A stretch of DNA of 64,000 bases, from the IMG/VR virus record IMGVR_UViG_3300037423_000584; one strand, written 5' to 3'. The DNA is from a virus. The position numbers and the translations under genes are program-made. A model generated the notes under the pieces. That model worked only from the letters and a program-made list of their open reading frames with translations. It was not told the origin of the DNA and searched no databases. Shown piece by piece: positions 37,919-46,492 of this stretch. The stretch's first letter is position 1, and every line of letters starts with the position of its first letter.

Positions 37919-39865
37919 TTAAGAATAGTATTCAGACCAGCATAGTGCTTCTATTCTTTTACGTTGTGCCAAAGTTGGCATCTGACCATTTTTAGAAGCA
38001 AAAGCCTTAATTTCATCATCGATTTTATTAACTATTTCTTGATTTAAAGAGGAAGCATTTTCAGATATGGACAATATTCCATCTTCTGAAATATCATCTC
38101 CATACTTAACGCAAGATAAGACAATAGATCTTATTTTGTTAATTTCGTCTTTTTGTGATGCAGTAAGCTTTCTTGCATTTTGAATATTTTCTTGTTCCAT
38201 ATATAATGGAATTACATATTCATCAATAGAATCAACCGCATCCAATGCAAATAAATTAAGTTCTTTTCCAGAAACCTTTGGTTTTGGAGTTCTTTGATCT
38301 CTACCAACGTCCTTCGTAGCAACAGGACGACCCTCGCCGGCTTGTCCTTGTGAGGAATCAAAAGGACTCTTTACTTCTATTCCGGCTTTCTTGAAAATTG
38401 GACCCTGTTGTTTAATCTTTTCAATTTCGATAAAGAAGTCTTCTCCATAGGCTTCCAGAACGGCTTCTGCACTGATAATACCTCTATCGAGAAGTCCAAT
38501 GATGAGTTTCTTATTGACGTTTTCGTCTTGGAGTTCTAACTTGCTAAACTTAACCTTTGGCAAAGAAGGAAAATCCATTGCCTTACAAATTAGTCTAAGT
38601 TCTTCATCAAGCCATTCAGAAAGCTTCTTTCGGACAGATTGAAGTTTTTCAATCAAAGTTTTTAACTGAATAGAGCTATTGGAGAAATTAGCACCATCGC
38701 CACCAATTAGAACTTCTGGCACTCCAAGGCCAATAAGAATATCTCTATTTACTTGAACATATTTTTCAGAACCAAGAATCTTATCTACAGGAGGATAGAA
38801 TGGTTCCATGGAAATCATGGAATCCCAAACAATATCCATTGCACCGCCACCTGTATTAGCTTCAAGGATATTAATAAGCTTTTCTACAGCAGCATCGTCT
38901 GGCAAAATTCCTTCTTTGTGGTCGCCAATCTTCCAAAGTCTTATAACGTTGATAACTCCATCAAGTGCAGATATTTCTGCTTGACGAAGCTTTTCTCTGA
39001 AATTAATATCGGATAAAACAGAAACCAAGAAAGGAGGTGCCCAATCATCCCAACTATCCTTTTTATTATGAGCAACATAAATTTTGCTCATATCGAGAAA
39101 CATCTTTCCTGAACTGTCAGAAGCGATTTTCTCTCTAATATCTTGTGGAAGACTATCTACTATTTTCTTATCAAAATCTTCTGTTGGATTCTTTATTTTG
39201 TTTATTAAAGTTTGGGATAGATTGAATGACAAGATCTTTTGTCCTGCCATTTTAGCTAGTTCCCCTCCAACCCAATCAAGAGCACAAAGGTTAAGAAATG
39301 AATAACGCATAGGAATCTCTCTAGATTCTACGTCATCATTTTCTTTATATACCTTTATATCTACTGAACTTGTAACTTTATCAAGCCATTGGTTTTCAAC
39401 TGGTTTATTTAATTTCCCAGTTATTCTCTTGACAACAACATTTCCATCAATTAAAAAGTGACGAGCAAATTCATTAGCAATATCATTAAGACAAACCTTC
39501 TTGGCCCAGACATTGAAAAATGCCTCGATCTTCCGATCAGGATGGACAATACGCATCTCTTCGCAGGCGAAGTCAGTCATCATATCCATGACGTTTCTTA
39601 CTACACCAACTTTGAGATAGGCATGTCTACAAGCATTAACTATGTGCTTGAATTGACGTGGAATTCTTTCATTTGGTCTAAAATAGTCGTAAGTCTCTCT
39701 GCTATAAGGCATTCTGACACTTACATCAGGAACAATCTCAGTAAGAGAAGTAGAGGCTTTAACTATAGGATCTTGTTTGTCAAAAGTGCCAGTATAAGAT
39801 GCCAATATCTTTTCTCTATTGGTATCATCAAAAGAAATATATGCTGGTTTATTAGGTTTGCTCAT
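37919..39865 (-). CDS. Portal protein
   Basis: 648 aa after TerL; VVRNVMDMMTDFA...FLIDGNV...ILIGLGVPEVLIGG. Confidence 0.85.
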   Translation of the reverse strand: MSKPNKPAYISFDDTNREKILASYTGTFDKQDPIVKASTSLTEIVPDVSVRMPYSRETYDYFRPNERIPRQFKHIVNACRHAYLKVGVVRNVMDMMTDFACEEMRIVHPDRKIEAFFNVWAKKVCLNDIANEFARHFLIDGNVVVKRITGKLNKPVENQWLDKVTSSVDIKVYKENDDVESREIPMRYSFLNLCALDWVGGELAKMAGQKILSFNLSQTLINKIKNPTEDFDKKIVDSLPQDIREKIASDSSGKMFLDMSKIYVAHNKKDSWDDWAPPFLVSVLSDINFREKLRQAEISALDGVINVIRLWKIGDHKEGILPDDAAVEKLINILEANTGGGAMDIVWDSMISMEPFYPPVDKILGSEKYVQVNRDILIGLGVPEVLIGGDGANFSNSSIQLKTLIEKLQSVRKKLSEWLDEELRLICKAMDFPSLPKVKFSKLELQDENVNKKLIIGLLDRGIISAEAVLEAYGEDFFIEIEKIKQQGPIFKKAGIEVKSPFDSSQGQAGEGRPVATKDVGRDQRTPKPKVSGKELNLFALDAVDSIDEYVIPLYMEQENIQNARKLTASQKDEINKIRSIVLSCVKYGDDISEDGILSISENASSLNQEIVNKIDDEIKAFASKNGQMPTLAQRKRIEALCWSEYYS

Positions 39866-39918: not shown

Positions 39919-42003
39919 TTATTGATTTCTTTTAATAAATCTAGCACCGTTATTTTTAATCCAATTTTTACCGTTAGCATCGAATTTAGCAAGTCCGTGA
40001 CCTCTATACATAGACCTATTTTCTCCTGCTTTAACTTTTCCTATTGTCTCTCTTGTTCCACCTACGGCTTTATATTGAACTTTAAAGACTGTGCTTTTAT
40101 CTTTGTTTCTAGAATAATAGTTGGCATATAATAATGCAGAATATCTATCTTTTCTTAGGTGTCCCTTCTTGCTTCCTTCTAATTTAATAGTAGGAGTATC
40201 GAAAGTTTCCTTACCAAGTGTAGAAGAAGGAGTAACAACGATTGTTGTCATTTCGTTCTTTAATTCCTCTATTTCTTCTACTAGATCTTCATAGGTATCG
40301 AATTTAATATTATTTACTTCATCTAGCTTAATGGCTTTTTCAAGTTCAATAGTATCAAACATTGGGAATAGAAGGATTTTATCTTGTAAATCCTTTAACA
40401 TTCCGTGGTTAGCTTCTGCGTTTATTTCTGCATTTGGTGCAATTAGTTCCAATATATGAATTCCTTCTTCTATATCGGAAGGTTTTGGTTTTTCAGGATC
40501 AACAATTTCATATACAGGAAATTCGCCTTCTTCACAGGTATATTGACTTGCCAAAGCTTCTGCGATTGCAGTACCGCCACCGTTTTTATCCATCATAATA
40601 CGTTCTATATTAAAAGTACGCATTAGTCCACGAATCTTTTTAGCAATATATTTATAATAGTCATCTTCTAAAGCTATACCAAGTTGTTTCATATATGCTT
40701 TAAAAGCATTGTATTTCTTTCTATTTGTAGTCCAGCAATTTACAACTCTTCTGTGATCTTGATATAGTTCAAGCAAAACTATGGCAGCATTGTCTTGATC
40801 TGCTGCGGGGTCTACGCCCATGATATAAATTCTTTCAGCATCACCAGTTCTGGAAGCAGAGAATTGGACATTACGACCTGATTGAGTCATAATCGGCTTA
40901 TTCGTAGTAGCAGCTTCAATGATTGATCTCTTGTAGAATCCATCGCTGTCTGCTTGAAATATGCCACAATATTCCATCAAGAATTGACCAGTATGTAGAT
41001 TTGCTTTGGCCTGTGATACTATACCTGCGTCAAGATATCCTTCTGGCAAATAAGTATATGGAATTCTTAAAATCGCATAATCTTTCCAATCAAAACCTTC
41101 AATTTCTGATTTATCTTCATTTGCAAATACAGTTGATAGCTTTTTCATTTCTCCTTTTGAAGATATAATAGTATGCCATTTCTTGAATTGAATATAAAAA
41201 TGGTTAAAAGCATAATATGCTGTTCCACTATAAACTATCTGGTTTCCTTTAATACCTGCCTTTGTTAAAGCTTTAATTTCATCGCTCCATTCTCCAAGAG
41301 CTTTGAGCTTCTTGTTAATCATAGCTTTCTTAACTTTTTCAACAGGAGAAGAAGATACGACACCGAAACCTTGAACTACTGTGGCAAAGATTTCTTGAGG
41401 AATAGATGCATATTCGTCGCAAAGGATGTAGTTTGCACGCATACCTCTGATCTTAGAACCATCGCCAAGAGGAATTGCAGTAAATAAACTATCTCCAATT
41501 CTTAATTCTACTCTGTCTACTTCTCTTCTTGGACCACCATTCTTTCCTCCAATATCTTTTAGGATAGGAGATTTTTCCCAAATATTTATGGCATAATCCA
41601 TTACTGCTCTAGATTGTCTAAATGCAGCACCGACGATGACAATCTTGCAACCGGGATGGAATATCATTCTCAGAAGTGCATATACTGCAAGAATAAAACT
41701 CTTGCCAGCACCGCGAGAAGCTATCAACATTGGGAATCTCTTATTCCACAATGTTTCTAATATAACTACTTGGAATGGAAGAAGATCTACTCCTAAAAGA
41801 ACTTTAGCAGCAAAGTGAAGATATTCTTGATTCATCAATGTCTGAACCATATCTTCAACAGGATCTTCTGGTGGTCTATCTAATGGATAATCAAGAAGTG
41901 GATTAAAAACATCTGATGGGATTTCTCCCAATTCCAGATATTCTATGTTTTCGGGTTTATTTAATTCCGAAAGACCATCTAGTAAATCTATATTACTTGC
42001 CAT
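39919..42003 (-). CDS. terL: Terminase large subunit
   Basis: Q-motif (LLPFQ), Walker A SRGAGKS, Walker B ILCDE, coupling motif SGT, nuclease GVDPA and KDRYSA; start at MASNID preferred to 42027. Confidence 0.95.
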   Translation of the reverse strand: MASNIDLLDGLSELNKPENIEYLELGEIPSDVFNPLLDYPLDRPPEDPVEDMVQTLMNQEYLHFAAKVLLGVDLLPFQVVILETLWNKRFPMLIASRGAGKSFILAVYALLRMIFHPGCKIVIVGAAFRQSRAVMDYAINIWEKSPILKDIGGKNGGPRREVDRVELRIGDSLFTAIPLGDGSKIRGMRANYILCDEYASIPQEIFATVVQGFGVVSSSPVEKVKKAMINKKLKALGEWSDEIKALTKAGIKGNQIVYSGTAYYAFNHFYIQFKKWHTIISSKGEMKKLSTVFANEDKSEIEGFDWKDYAILRIPYTYLPEGYLDAGIVSQAKANLHTGQFLMEYCGIFQADSDGFYKRSIIEAATTNKPIMTQSGRNVQFSASRTGDAERIYIMGVDPAADQDNAAIVLLELYQDHRRVVNCWTTNRKKYNAFKAYMKQLGIALEDDYYKYIAKKIRGLMRTFNIERIMMDKNGGGTAIAEALASQYTCEEGEFPVYEIVDPEKPKPSDIEEGIHILELIAPNAEINAEANHGMLKDLQDKILLFPMFDTIELEKAIKLDEVNNIKFDTYEDLVEEIEELKNEMTTIVVTPSSTLGKETFDTPTIKLEGSKKGHLRKDRYSALLYANYYSRNKDKSTVFKVQYKAVGGTRETIGKVKAGENRSMYRGHGLAKFDANGKNWIKNNGARFIKRNQ

Positions 42004-42475
42004 TTTCAGCCCTTGCAACTGCTTCAAAAATAGTTCGTGCTAATCTTTTTCCACATGGTCCTGCATACTTAACACTAATTCCATACTCTACTTCTAATTC
42101 CTCTAGCCACTTCATTACGGTATTACATGGCAATCCTGTTTGAACTTGAGGAGGAGCCATTCCTAAAAGATCATCAGAAAGAGACGACTCAACAATAATA
42201 TATTTATATTTGATATGACGAAGCTTTTCCATTTCTCTTTCGAATCGTTCTCTATTCGCAACTGGACTATAGTTACCAAATAGTTCTCTAAAGCCCATCT
42301 TACGTTCGATTCGGATAATATCCTCGTATCCTTTTAATGAATAATCTCCTGCTTCAAGTGTTCCTACTTCTGTTCCTAATACTTGTATTTTTCCTGCGAC
42401 CTTTTCTTCTGGATGAAAATCCCATCCTTTTTGTTCCCTTGTGTCGCGAATTACAGTCAGTGCTGGCAATCTCAT
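41993..42475 (-). CDS. ERCC4/XPF-type nuclease domain protein
   Basis: IRDTREQ...LEAGDYS...IERK motifs. Confidence 0.85.
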   Translation of the reverse strand: MRLPALTVIRDTREQKGWDFHPEEKVAGKIQVLGTEVGTLEAGDYSLKGYEDIIRIERKMGFRELFGNYSPVANRERFEREMEKLRHIKYKYIIVESSLSDDLLGMAPPQVQTGLPCNTVMKWLEELEVEYGISVKYAGPCGKRLARTIFEAVARAENGK

Positions 42476-42852: not shown

Positions 42853-43932
42853 TTATATATTCGTATTAAGTTCTATATCGTTGCTTACCATTTCTTTAAT
42901 CATTTGATCAAAAGGAATAGTAATTTTCCATCCAAGATTTGTTTCGGCTTTTGCAGCATTTCCACAAAGTAGATCAACTTCTGCTGGTCTGTATAATTTT
43001 TGGTCTGTCTCAACAAACGGCTTCCAGTCTGTAATTCCAATAACTGAAAATGCAGCGTCTAGAAGTTCTTTAATTGTTCTAGTAGTACCAGAAGCGAATA
43101 CATAATCATCAGGAGTATCTTGTTGAAGCATAAGATACATACCATAAACAGTATCTCTAGCATCCATCCAGTCACGACGAGCTTTTAGATTTCCAAGCTT
43201 AAGTGGAGTAATTGCCTTATTCTTTAATGCTAATTCAAATACAGTTTGTACTGGAATAACAGAATCTGGTGCAATTTCATCATAAACTTCTGGTGCAAAG
43301 AAAGCATTCTCGGCTTGATTGAAAGATCGTCCAATCCAATCTGTTACCTTACGTGTAACGAATTGTTTTCCTCGACGTGGACTTTCGTGATTAAAACTTC
43401 TAGAGAAACAAGCAAACAAGCCATAAGATTCTTTATAGACTTTTACAAGAGATTCGGCTCCAAACTTTGCTGCTCCATATGGACTTCTAGGACGTGGTAT
43501 GGTATCTTCGTCTTGCTTATCAACAATTACATCGCCATAAACTTCGGAAGTAGAAGCCTGTAGAAACTTTGTTCGTGGAGAAATAAGACGAATAGCTTCC
43601 AGACAATTGCAAACACCGGTAAAATTAACATCACAAGTAGCTATAGATTGATCCCAAGAAGCAGCAACGAAGCTCTGAGCAGCTAAATTATAGAATTCAT
43701 TGGGCTTATATTGCTTAAGAACTCTAGCAATGCTGCCAAAATCTGTTACGTCACCTTGCTCTAGAATATAATTAGGATTATCAAATAGATGTTTAATATT
43801 ACTATAATCTGGTGAACTTGAACGTCTTTCCATTGCTACTACCTTATATCCTTTAGATAAAAGTAGTTCCGCAAGGTATGAAGCATCTTGACCACGGGCA
43901 CCAGTGAGAACTGCGATTTTATGACTATCCAT
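42853..43932 (-). CDS. gmd: GDP-mannose 4,6-dehydratase
   Basis: TGARGQDASYLAELLL, NLAAQSFV, QASTSEVYG, SPYGAAK, FNHESPRRG, LGNLKARRDW, RPAEVDLL. Confidence 0.95.
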   Translation of the reverse strand: MDSHKIAVLTGARGQDASYLAELLLSKGYKVVAMERRSSSPDYSNIKHLFDNPNYILEQGDVTDFGSIARVLKQYKPNEFYNLAAQSFVAASWDQSIATCDVNFTGVCNCLEAIRLISPRTKFLQASTSEVYGDVIVDKQDEDTIPRPRSPYGAAKFGAESLVKVYKESYGLFACFSRSFNHESPRRGKQFVTRKVTDWIGRSFNQAENAFFAPEVYDEIAPDSVIPVQTVFELALKNKAITPLKLGNLKARRDWMDARDTVYGMYLMLQQDTPDDYVFASGTTRTIKELLDAAFSVIGITDWKPFVETDQKLYRPAEVDLLCGNAAKAETNLGWKITIPFDQMIKEMVSNDIELNTNI

Positions 43933-44314
43933 TTTGATTTCCTTTTATTCTTTTGATTTCCTCTATAGGATTGCTTGTAGATACTAAATATCCTCTAATA
44001 ATCGTTTCTAATGCTTCTTGATTAATAGATCTATAATTATTTACTATAATATGTCTTGCTCTAAAACTCCGTATTTTTGATCCATCCATATCTACTGGAA
44101 AAAAGTAAATTTGCATTTTATCTATCTTGCAATTATCTTCCTGATATTCCCCTTTTATCGATTCATATTTTTCTTCTAAGTTTTTTAATATTTCTTTTGA
44201 CTGTCTATATGATGGAGATATAACAACAGTTTTCTCAGTTGGTTTGTTATTGGCAAGATATAGTATTATATCTTCAACAACATCTTTCTCTTTGTCTTCG
44301 ATATACAATATCAT
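43925..44314 (-). CDS. Truncated, inactive paralog of the terminase ATPase domain
   Basis: Aligns by eye to this genome's TerL (RQS; DGSKIR.RA; Y.SI.QE; S.P.E); Walker A absent; Walker B DE replaced by NN. Confidence 0.8.
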   Translation of the reverse strand: MILYIEDKEKDVVEDIILYLANNKPTEKTVVISPSYRQSKEILKNLEEKYESIKGEYQEDNCKIDKMQIYFFPVDMDGSKIRSFRARHIIVNNYRSINQEALETIIRGYLVSTSNPIEEIKRIKGNQNG

Positions 44315-44315
44315 T

Positions 44316-44591
44316 TTAATCTCTAAAAAATAAATCTAATTCTTTCTCTGATCCAACTATTGCTACCTTAGTATTATCGTCTTCAAGAACAATTGTATAT
44401 AAATAAAAATCTTCACAAGTTTTAGATATATCAATAGATACGTTTATCATCTTCTTTAAGAATTCTTGAATTGGACAATCTATGAACTGTATCTCAACAG
44501 TTTTAAGACTGTCCATTTCTTGGAAATAAATTCCTCGTTCAAAATTGTCTTGAGAGACAAAAAAGGTTTTAATTCCCTTGACCATTGGCAT
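44316..44591 (-). CDS. Hypothetical acidic protein
   Basis: 91 aa coupled ORF. Confidence 0.55.
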   Translation of the reverse strand: MPMVKGIKTFFVSQDNFERGIYFQEMDSLKTVEIQFIDCPIQEFLKKMINVSIDISKTCEDFYLYTIVLEDDNTKVAIVGSEKELDLFFRD

Positions 44592-45186
44592 ATTCCTTCT
44601 TTAGAATTTCGATAGCCTCTTCGAATCCTTTGCCCTCGTGGATTAATTGGTGAATCTTCGTGTGTACTTCTTTACAAATAGGAAGACCGTTGTTTGGATC
44701 GAATGCAAGTTCTGGACTTATATTCTCAGCTTTAGGAATAATATGATGTACTTCGATGTTATCTGTTCTTCCAGAAATGGCACATTTATTACCATACTTT
44801 TCCAATACTGCTTTTCTGAAATCATCATAAGCAGATTGATTCTTTGCCCATGCTGAGAAGGTGCTGCTTGCTCTGCCATCTTTCCAAGCAGGATGGCTTG
44901 GTCCTTTTTGATAAGCATGTTTGCACAATTCATCACAGAATTGGTTCTTGCTGTAAATTACTTTGCTATTTGGTCTACGGAAAAATGCTCCGCAGTTACC
45001 ACACATACAAAGAGTGCCAACAATTTCCTTCCCATTGCGTGGAAACTGGTGTCCGATTTGTTTGGCAAGTTTACGAATGAAAGGACGGCTTAGACCAGTC
45101 TTCTTTTCAATTTCTCTCTGGCCTTCGCCGGACAAAATAAGATCTACTGCGTAAGCTTTTTCTGATTCAGGAACTATTCTAGGCAT
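44569..45186 (-). CDS. HTH + Zn-finger + HNH endonuclease
   Basis: QREIEKKTGLSR; CGNCG...FCDELC; CAISG...EVHHI...NGLPICKEVH. Confidence 0.85.
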   Translation of the reverse strand: MPRIVPESEKAYAVDLILSGEGQREIEKKTGLSRPFIRKLAKQIGHQFPRNGKEIVGTLCMCGNCGAFFRRPNSKVIYSKNQFCDELCKHAYQKGPSHPAWKDGRASSTFSAWAKNQSAYDDFRKAVLEKYGNKCAISGRTDNIEVHHIIPKAENISPELAFDPNNGLPICKEVHTKIHQLIHEGKGFEEAIEILKKEYANGQGN

Positions 45187-46492
45187 TGTTTTCTCCGGTA
45201 ATTATTTTTACTATTTCTTCAAATGGTACTGTTTCTATTTCTCTTTCGCCAGCCAACATTGTGCTCATCTTCTTAGATCCATCTTTGTTCATTGAGTGAA
45301 TCAGGATCTTGGATTCTTTACATAAATTTTTGTTAAGTATATGATCTACAAATTCGCTTCCCTTCTGATTCATTCCTAAATCATAATCTAGGCAAATTAG
45401 GTCATATTTAGTTTCTTTGATTTTTTCTATCGCTTTTGATGGATTTGATGCAAAATCTAGCTTATTTTGATTAAAAACTTCCAAAAAGAACTGATGTCTA
45501 CGTAATTCATCATCAATAATCAGAATTTTTTTATCCTTTTCATTCTTAAATTCATTAACGAATTTACACTGAAAATTATTCATTATCACGATTTCTTTTT
45601 CAGGTATATAAGAATGTTCGTCCATTAGTATTGAGTCTTTTGTTCCATCAGGAAAAACATTGGGTTTTCGCCATTCTGATTTCTTCTTTTCTTTAGCAAG
45701 CCTTACAAGCTCCATATGCTTGCCGTATTCTTCTCTTGTTTGTCTATCTCTAAAAGCTTCTATCAAACCAACGAAGGTTGTATTACTTTTCTTGATTTGA
45801 TCTATTCTGTCTTTTCTTCGGGCATTGAGTTGATCCAAAAGTCTGTTTCTTGAATCAACGTTTTTCTGATAATCGTTCGTCATAATCTGAGCCTGAGCGT
45901 GCATACTTCTAACAAGATTCATAAGTTGGGCATCACGCTCTTGTGCATCTTCATCGTTGTCAATATCTGTTGCTTTTCTAAGAACATCAACTTCTTCTAT
46001 GGTCTTCTCAATTTCATCTTCGGCAACTCTAATGTTTCTAAGAATGCGGTTGCCCATGATTTCTGCTTTAATCAATTCATCAATCTGGCGTTTCTCTGTT
46101 GCAAGAATATCTTCGAATTGAATTGAAAGTGCTGCAAATTCTTCAAGATAGAATTTAATTTCACTTTCTGTAAACTGTTCTTTTAGATTGTCATAATATA
46201 GGCTGTTAACAAGCTGAGTCTTAAAGAACTCTTTTCTCTGTGCTTCTGTTAGATGCTGACCAATTCTTTTAGACGACACGGATGGTTCTGCTTTACTTGT
46301 CTTTTCTTTTCTGACTATATCTGTTTTAATAGACCCCTTAGAACCTTTAGCTATACCAAGTTTTCGACGAGCATATTTAATTGTACGAATATCTCTCTTA
46401 AGTTCTTTAGCAATTTGCTCATCGGTCTTATCGAGACAATTGCTTCTGATATATTCTAATTCTTGAGGTTTTAAATATGGATTCTTAGGCAT
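45179..46492 (-). CDS. HTH/coiled-coil protein (terminase small subunit candidate) fused to a cyclic-phosphate-processing-type receiver domain
   Basis: N-terminal TDEQIAKELKRDIRTI; C-terminal ILIIDDE...LDYDLG...G...ILIHSMN..G. Confidence 0.6.
   Translation of the reverse strand: MPKNPYLKPQELEYIRSNCLDKTDEQIAKELKRDIRTIKYARRKLGIAKGSKGSIKTDIVRKEKTSKAEPSVSSKRIGQHLTEAQRKEFFKTQLVNSLYYDNLKEQFTESEIKFYLEEFAALSIQFEDILATEKRQIDELIKAEIMGNRILRNIRVAEDEIEKTIEEVDVLRKATDIDNDEDAQERDAQLMNLVRSMHAQAQIMTNDYQKNVDSRNRLLDQLNARRKDRIDQIKKSNTTFVGLIEAFRDRQTREEYGKHMELVRLAKEKKKSEWRKPNVFPDGTKDSILMDEHSYIPEKEIVIMNNFQCKFVNEFKNEKDKKILIIDDELRRHQFFLEVFNQNKLDFASNPSKAIEKIKETKYDLICLDYDLGMNQKGSEFVDHILNKNLCKESKILIHSMNKDGSKKMSTMLAGEREIETVPFEEIVKIITGENNA

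Follow-up and report, generated by a model that had tools for sequence, protein, structure and literature searches.

A short, catalytically dead terminase ATPase derivative with a preferentially kept donor face in a family of phages

We found that a short gene in the packaging gene run of an uncultured phage (IMG/VR record IMGVR_UViG_3300037423_000584) encodes a dead ATPase core of the terminase TerL, one that has lost the lid together with the cis side (ATP-binding, acceptor) and has preferentially kept the trans side (arginine-finger, donor). The window examined, a stretch of 64,000 nucleotides, is part of a phage record of 172,542 bases with a GC content of 34.7%. The gene, referred to here as mini (43925-44314, minus strand, 129 amino acids), corresponds to the part of the TerL ATPase core that begins with the Walker A strand and ends with the helix following Walker B. 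A previous sequence-only reading had proposed a maintained, catalytically dead derivative of the TerL ATPase; this was supported by our analysis, and the protein probably acts by binding.

Gene setting and terminase ancestry

Residues 25-122 of the mini protein were aligned with TerL 125-234 at 31% identity over 110 amino acids (BLASTP, E 1e-15), and the local score of 141 compared with a mean of 36 and a maximum of 74 among 3000 shuffles. Comparison of the mini family profile with the TerL profile gave a probability of 99.7% (E 1.8e-26), so the alignment with TerL noted earlier was borne out. The best Foldseek matches of the AlphaFold model (pLDDT 87.6) were the terminase ATPases of T4, P74-26 and D6E, with weak E-values in the PDB, none reaching 0.001 there, and 3e-4 in the viral library. 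In both homology and fold, the mini protein is a terminase (ASCE) core. The TerL ATPase domains of P74-26, T4 gp17, D6E and PhiV-1 (PDB 4ZNL, 2O0J, 5OE8 and 8DGC) share its fold and order of elements, whereas the mini protein is without their adenine-binding motif, P-loop, Walker B, motif III, lid and nuclease. A sequence search of the PDB with the mini protein returned nothing significant, and a word-based protein search and a viral-contig scan with the single mini as query recovered only mini itself. Pfam matches to Cas6 and topoisomerase fell under the cut-off and were discarded; the family as such is absent from Pfam and PHROGs.

The mini gene starts with ATG, 1 nt past the stop of the upstream gene, and its stop is overlapped by 8 nt by the start of the GDP-mannose 4,6-dehydratase gene (42853-43932, minus strand), its conserved downstream neighbour; the tight coupling to both neighbours described previously was confirmed. 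The gene run comprises a sigma-like factor, an HTH/coiled-coil/receiver protein, an HTH-HNH gene, a 91-residue ORF and mini, followed by the dehydratase, an HNH gene, an ERCC4-type nuclease, TerL and portal, with three genes separating mini and terL. The HTH/Zn/HNH gene (44569-45186, minus strand) is a conserved upstream synteny marker and was the basis for scoring the presence or absence of mini. TerL (39919-42027, minus strand), which represents the parent family of mini and is its predicted partner, is intact, with Walker A, Walker B, motif III and an RNase H-type nuclease; its nearest cultured relatives are from Bacillus phages, at 25%. Mini is the sole TerL-like short copy within its 172-kb genome. 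A promoter scan gave no surplus over shuffles.

Two neighbours were also of note. Every close relative examined had the dehydratase gene as a conserved part of its packaging gene run. The product of 45179-46492, in which a cREC_REC receiver domain is fused to HTH and coiled-coil parts, is a candidate small terminase, and its orthologues in L009 and L101 are without the receiver domain. Genome-bin matches of the TerL family spanned unrelated phyla and appear mis-binned, and a host assignment from them was rejected.

Lost and retained parts of the ATPase core

A full HMMER scan recovered 13 short homologues (100-139 amino acids) besides TerLs, and the 13-member alignment used here consists of the window mini and 12 of these. 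The first methionine of mini aligns with the Walker A strand, the AlphaFold model having a strand (E2-5) followed by a helix (H7-23), and residue 1 of the model aligns to P74-26 residue 31. The sequence-only reading had placed the start past Walker A; instead, residues 1-11 (44282-44314, minus strand) begin at the Walker A strand, and an eroded, acidic stretch replaces the P-loop. Across the family, TerL P-loop residues G106 and K109 were found in 0 of 13 members and R105 in one. The change of Walker B from DE to NN was verified at N92-N93 (44036-44041, minus strand), equivalent to TerL D204-E205, where the D is present in 0/13 members and the E in 1/13. Mini ends at approximately TerL 240 and TerL motif III lies at 267-269, so that motif III, the lid and the nuclease, the last already reported as absent, are all lost; every family member stops short of motif III, and none has a lid or nuclease.

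The best-kept parts of the family are the motif before Walker B, together with G108 and P116. This motif, residues 77-85 (44060-44086, minus strand), is the best conserved of all and contains R82 and R85, while the helices after Walker B, residues 100-123 (43946-44017, minus strand), carry the invariant G108 and conserved P116 and are predicted by the model to pack on the TerL lid. R82 corresponds to TerL R194, to P74-26 R139, which is a confirmed trans finger (PMC5727402), and to T4 R245, an Avs2 C-terminal sensor contact. By position, R82 precedes Walker B by 10 residues, the same spacing as P74-26 R139, and both proteins have an arginine at the trans-finger position. The finger arginine is present in 10 of the 13 family members and missing from three (P0007, P0008 and P0010), and two of the 13 are without the last interface helix. 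R85, the equivalent of PhiV-1 R154, is invariant across the family. It was separately noted that TerL residue 219 is Gln in the window and Arg in about half of the TerL family, that mini has Arg there (R107), and that, by approximate mapping, this residue is close to where the D6E trans finger R158 falls.

We assessed how many of the TerL positions with at least 75% conservation were retained by the 13 minis. Retention on the donor face was 0.68, higher than at acceptor-face positions (0.24) and at the remaining ones (0.29), with p 0.002 and 0.001; the test is partly circular because the donor set was taken from the complex model and the homologues were found by likeness to mini.

The complex model of TerL 45-395 with ATP, Mg and the mini protein scored 0.75, and the best of three controls scored 0.00. 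Of 80 solved complexes 58 attained the score mark, as did 2 of 110 mismatched pairs; these counts apply only roughly to the present case, and close cousins of true partners also pass. Runs of the model shared at least 93% of contacts, with a partner pLDDT of at least 86. The predicted interface comprises mini residues 58-61, 79-84 and 100-123, and on TerL the P-loop (104-110), 134-142, Walker B (204-208), T269 and the lid (328-352; 40972-41046, minus strand), which in the model is the main docking site. The named contacts do not include the invariant R85. The modelled arrangement is the lid-to-core contact with which terminase rings have been modelled (PMC9410871), and the model may therefore pass because of its resemblance to the TerL-TerL interface. 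The complex model is accordingly read as evidence of a retained donor face and not of binding. We consider it slightly more probable than its opposite that the mini protein binds its own TerL. Of the two functions proposed earlier, that of a dominant-negative motor regulator gains support from this model.

Distribution and divergence of the family

Homologues were found in related phages, where the distribution had been suggested as a check. Seven phages (the window, L007, L008, L009, L011, L101 and L106) carry the mini gene shortly upstream of the dehydratase, and it is missing at the syntenic site in three relatives (L014, L097 and L098) in which the flanking genes are conserved. Elsewhere, members follow the capsid gene in L012, belong to a replication cluster in L013 and form part of a small-gene cluster in L150. 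Only TerL, and no mini, was found in four complete, more distant genomes. Mini orthologues were 28-42% identical, compared with 40-71% (mostly 50-62%) for the neighbouring HNH, dehydratase and TerL genes, and the mean identity among minis of 26% was barely above the 24% between minis and TerLs. The family is patchy and fast-evolving, and its divergence, its presence and absence, its three other contexts and the portal clip in L150 are signs of a conflict gene. The alignment was too variable for a DNA-pattern scan, and dN/dS was uninformative, as no differences separate the window-type copies and the single close pair shows two synonymous changes and one conservative change.

The earlier description of mini as a copy of the phage's own TerL stands with regard to homology to the TerL ATPase core and fails with regard to a recent copy. 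There was no DNA-level match between mini and the window TerL, and a clade of mini with its own TerL was rejected for two pairs (AU p 1.7e-4 and 0.0095), although long branches make this result unsure; recent duplication of the own TerL was ruled out on these two grounds. Minis were no nearer to their own TerL than to other TerLs, and in trees the short proteins fell on one side of a supported branch and all TerLs on the other. With no fresh copy and this tree evidence, mini appears to be an old derivative of the phage family's TerL. A split terminase was excluded by the undivided TerL genes of the window, L011, L012 and L106; the L009 TerL (L009:10321-12412) has several frameshifts and stops, probably assembly errors, with its ATPase core still present.

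A decaying duplicate without function is very improbable, as was argued before from the intact frame: the high divergence is in keeping with it and the more intact stand-alone copies P0026 (L104) and P0020 (L105) suggest a decay gradient, but the 13 members, at a mean identity of 26%, are all open frames of 100-139 residues with the same start and nearly the same end, and conservation is asymmetric, gene coupling tight and the fold confident. The first of these copies (L104:27-554) is a 175-residue stand-alone TerL ATPase directly before ERCC4 and TerL, with Walker motifs partly intact, and is possibly a less-decayed stage or a separate duplication. The second (L105:197-775) is a 192-residue TerL-like ATPase beside phoH in a replication cluster, with Walker A present, DN at Walker B and a twin-arginine-like N-terminus. 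We also observed a full-length TerL homologue of 658 residues, P0009, with DQ instead of DE at Walker B. Differences between the mini gene L013:623-982 and those of L117-L121 are confined to codons 97-100, which suggests a short recombination patch.

Directly behind the mini homologue P0010 in L150, we found a 79-residue stand-alone portal-clip fragment (L150:1350-1589). It matches residues 307-356 of the window portal (37919-39865, minus strand; clip at 38798-38947) at 54% (E 5e-17), with a score of 149 against a shuffle maximum of 54. These portal residues form a strand-helix-strand element between stem helices, a clip by architecture. No homologues or other copy of the fragment were found, the evidence is from one contig, and the mini there has no finger arginine. 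The portal clip is also a docking place for TerL, so the L150 pair could equally be two TerL binders. The portal is the other original Avs target besides terminase. That fragments of both original targets stand in tandem outside the packaging operon is more in keeping with counter-defence than with control of packaging.

Possible roles of the mini protein

Avs1-3 and Upx recognise terminase through features that the phage cannot mutate. We tentatively favour, while holding it short of probable, that the mini protein is a one-sided cap concealing the ATP site of TerL from Avs1-3, and would act in counter-defence as a shield on the phage's own trigger and not as bait. The mini protein would be co-transcribed just ahead of TerL, and its donor face would dock on the ATP site and lid of its own TerL like a neighbouring ring subunit; as it has no lid or active site of its own, a further subunit would not be accepted and free TerL monomers would be capped. 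The ATP-bound active site read by Avs2 and Avs3 would thereby be covered, and TerL assembly on the portal would displace the cap, a release that has to be assumed because a tight cap would poison packaging. In a structure of Avs2 with terminase, the P-loop and the bound ATP are what the TPR domain reads (bioRxiv 2026.08.25.746987; PMC13601566). Avs recognition seemingly targets monomers and clashes with oligomerised forms, as stated for newer Avs families (PMC13581612), which matches the logic of a cap, and it has been speculated that a third partner conceals terminase during infection (PMC11564622). The occurrence of some family members outside the packaging operon argues against it, as do the members without the finger arginine or the last interface helix, the position of R85 outside the named contacts and the finding that minis are no nearer to their own TerL than to others.

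The kept surface can also be read in another way. The Avs2 C-terminal sensor contacts D242, R245, N247, Q271, S275 and S276 (T4-type residues; bioRxiv 2026.08.25.746987) correspond to mini 79, 82, 84, 108, 112 and 113 by a gapless mapping anchored on Walker B, and all six positions fall inside the predicted TerL interface; the same surface may therefore be read as a face that binds TerL or as an epitope for the sensor, alternatives that sequence cannot separate. An exposed donor face may in some hosts itself trigger defence, as Ksap1/2 and vs.8 do, and such a trade-off between shield and trigger would explain the fast evolution and patchy presence of mini.

It is somewhat unlikely that the mini protein is a silent decoy, blocking the C-terminal sensor common to Avs2 and Avs3 through its kept face and, without ATP, P-loop and nuclease, failing to engage the TPR domain. 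Besides the six mapped contacts, PhiV-1 R154, which is gripped by EcAvs2 E1444/E1462 (PMC13601566), is the invariant R85; the side lost by mini is exactly the TPR/ATP side; the portal-clip fragment stands behind mini in L150; and SeAvs3 is not activated by Ksap1/2 (PMC13601566). However, Ksap1/2 activate Avs2 although predicted to contact mainly its C-terminal sensor (PMC11564622; PMC13601566), vs.8 and isolated ATPase domains are EcAvs2 activators (PMC13601566), and Walker B mutants are mostly still activators of Upx (PMC13601566; PMC11564622). The literature searches turned up no terminase mimic that fails to activate. The decoy is weaker than the cap because isolated TerL ATPase domains, Ksap1/Ksap2 and T4 vs.8 all activate Avs2 homologues (PMC13601566; PMC11564622). 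The other function proposed by the sequence-only reading, titration of Avs without activation, thus stands in that the kept face is the Avs2 C-terminal sensor contact and is weakened by the activating analogues.

A packaging regulator with no defence role, in which the cap keeps TerL monomeric before the portal, stops futile rings or lends a finger for ATP turnover, is unlikely. The same complex model, the finger arginine in most members and the placement of mini in seven phages, a few genes ahead of TerL or of the dehydratase preceding TerL, are consistent with it. Against it, three close relatives whose gene order is otherwise preserved have no mini at the site, none was found in the four more distant complete genomes, and mini evolves much faster than motor genes, moves among operons and stands beside the portal-clip fragment in L150.

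We regard as distinctly unlikely a binding module for another target, such as the terminases of phages that co-infect and compete, a ring ATPase of the host or some other protein. The minis show no tracking of their cognate TerL, their genomic context is variable and includes a replication cluster (L013), and the phage functions of Ksap1, Ksap2 and vs.8 are unknown (PMC13601566); but no candidate partner was found, and the retained residues are those conserved in the phage family's own TerL.

Truncated terminases are already known, in Rak2-like phages and as vs.8, and what is new here is the mini family with a residue-level, testable capping model. T4 vs.8 (NP_049732.1, 219 residues; Evans et al. 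2026, PMC13601566) is also a stand-alone TerL-ATPase homologue with no nuclease and a similar motif before Walker B, but vs.8 keeps Walker A and B and mini has neither. Its match to mini was weak (hhalign 34.5%, E 4e-4, against a single sequence; tblastn found nothing in T4) compared with 99.7% to the TerL of mini's own clade, which points to separate origins. Ksap1 and Ksap2 (Bechon et al. 2024, PMC11564622) are likewise small proteins confined to particular phage lineages and, as in mini, have a sheet resembling that of the terminase ATPase and helices that are predicted to face the C-terminal sensor of Avs2. They have no TerL sequence homology and are demonstrated Avs2 activators, whereas mini is a clear TerL sequence homologue. 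A tblastn search with mini of 50,697 phage records at E 1, which is indirect for Ksap1/Ksap2, returned only Bacillus and Clostridium phage terminases. In Rak2-like jumbo phages and Sinorhizobium phiM12/phiN3 (CBB_274; PMC5259590, PMC7760394), a second, truncated terminase gene of the T4-type TerL lineage (PHA02533) adjoins terL and is described as a group hallmark. Mini differs in belonging to another TerL family, in being patchy and shifting in position, and in lying three genes from terL in a 172-kb genome.

The reason why phages carry small terminase look-alikes has been named an open question, and it was suggested that such proteins may be anti-defence factors that Avs2 came to see (PMC13601566). 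It is possible, though again short of probable, that phages use one-sided pieces of oligomerising PAMP proteins of their own, such as the TerL donor face and the portal clip, to cap newly made monomers or occupy the Avs sensor, so that the PAMP proteins escape Avs pattern-recognition receptors, and that Ksap1/2, vs.8 and the Rak2-like truncated terminases follow the same strategy, some of them having been learned by Avs2. The mini family offers a minimal, residue-level candidate, one conserved surface with either the motor of the phage itself or the sensor as its possible partner, and its readings as shield, decoy or trigger are separable by simple toxicity and binding assays. If capping is true, mini would be a natural inhibitor for trapping TerL subunit interfaces.
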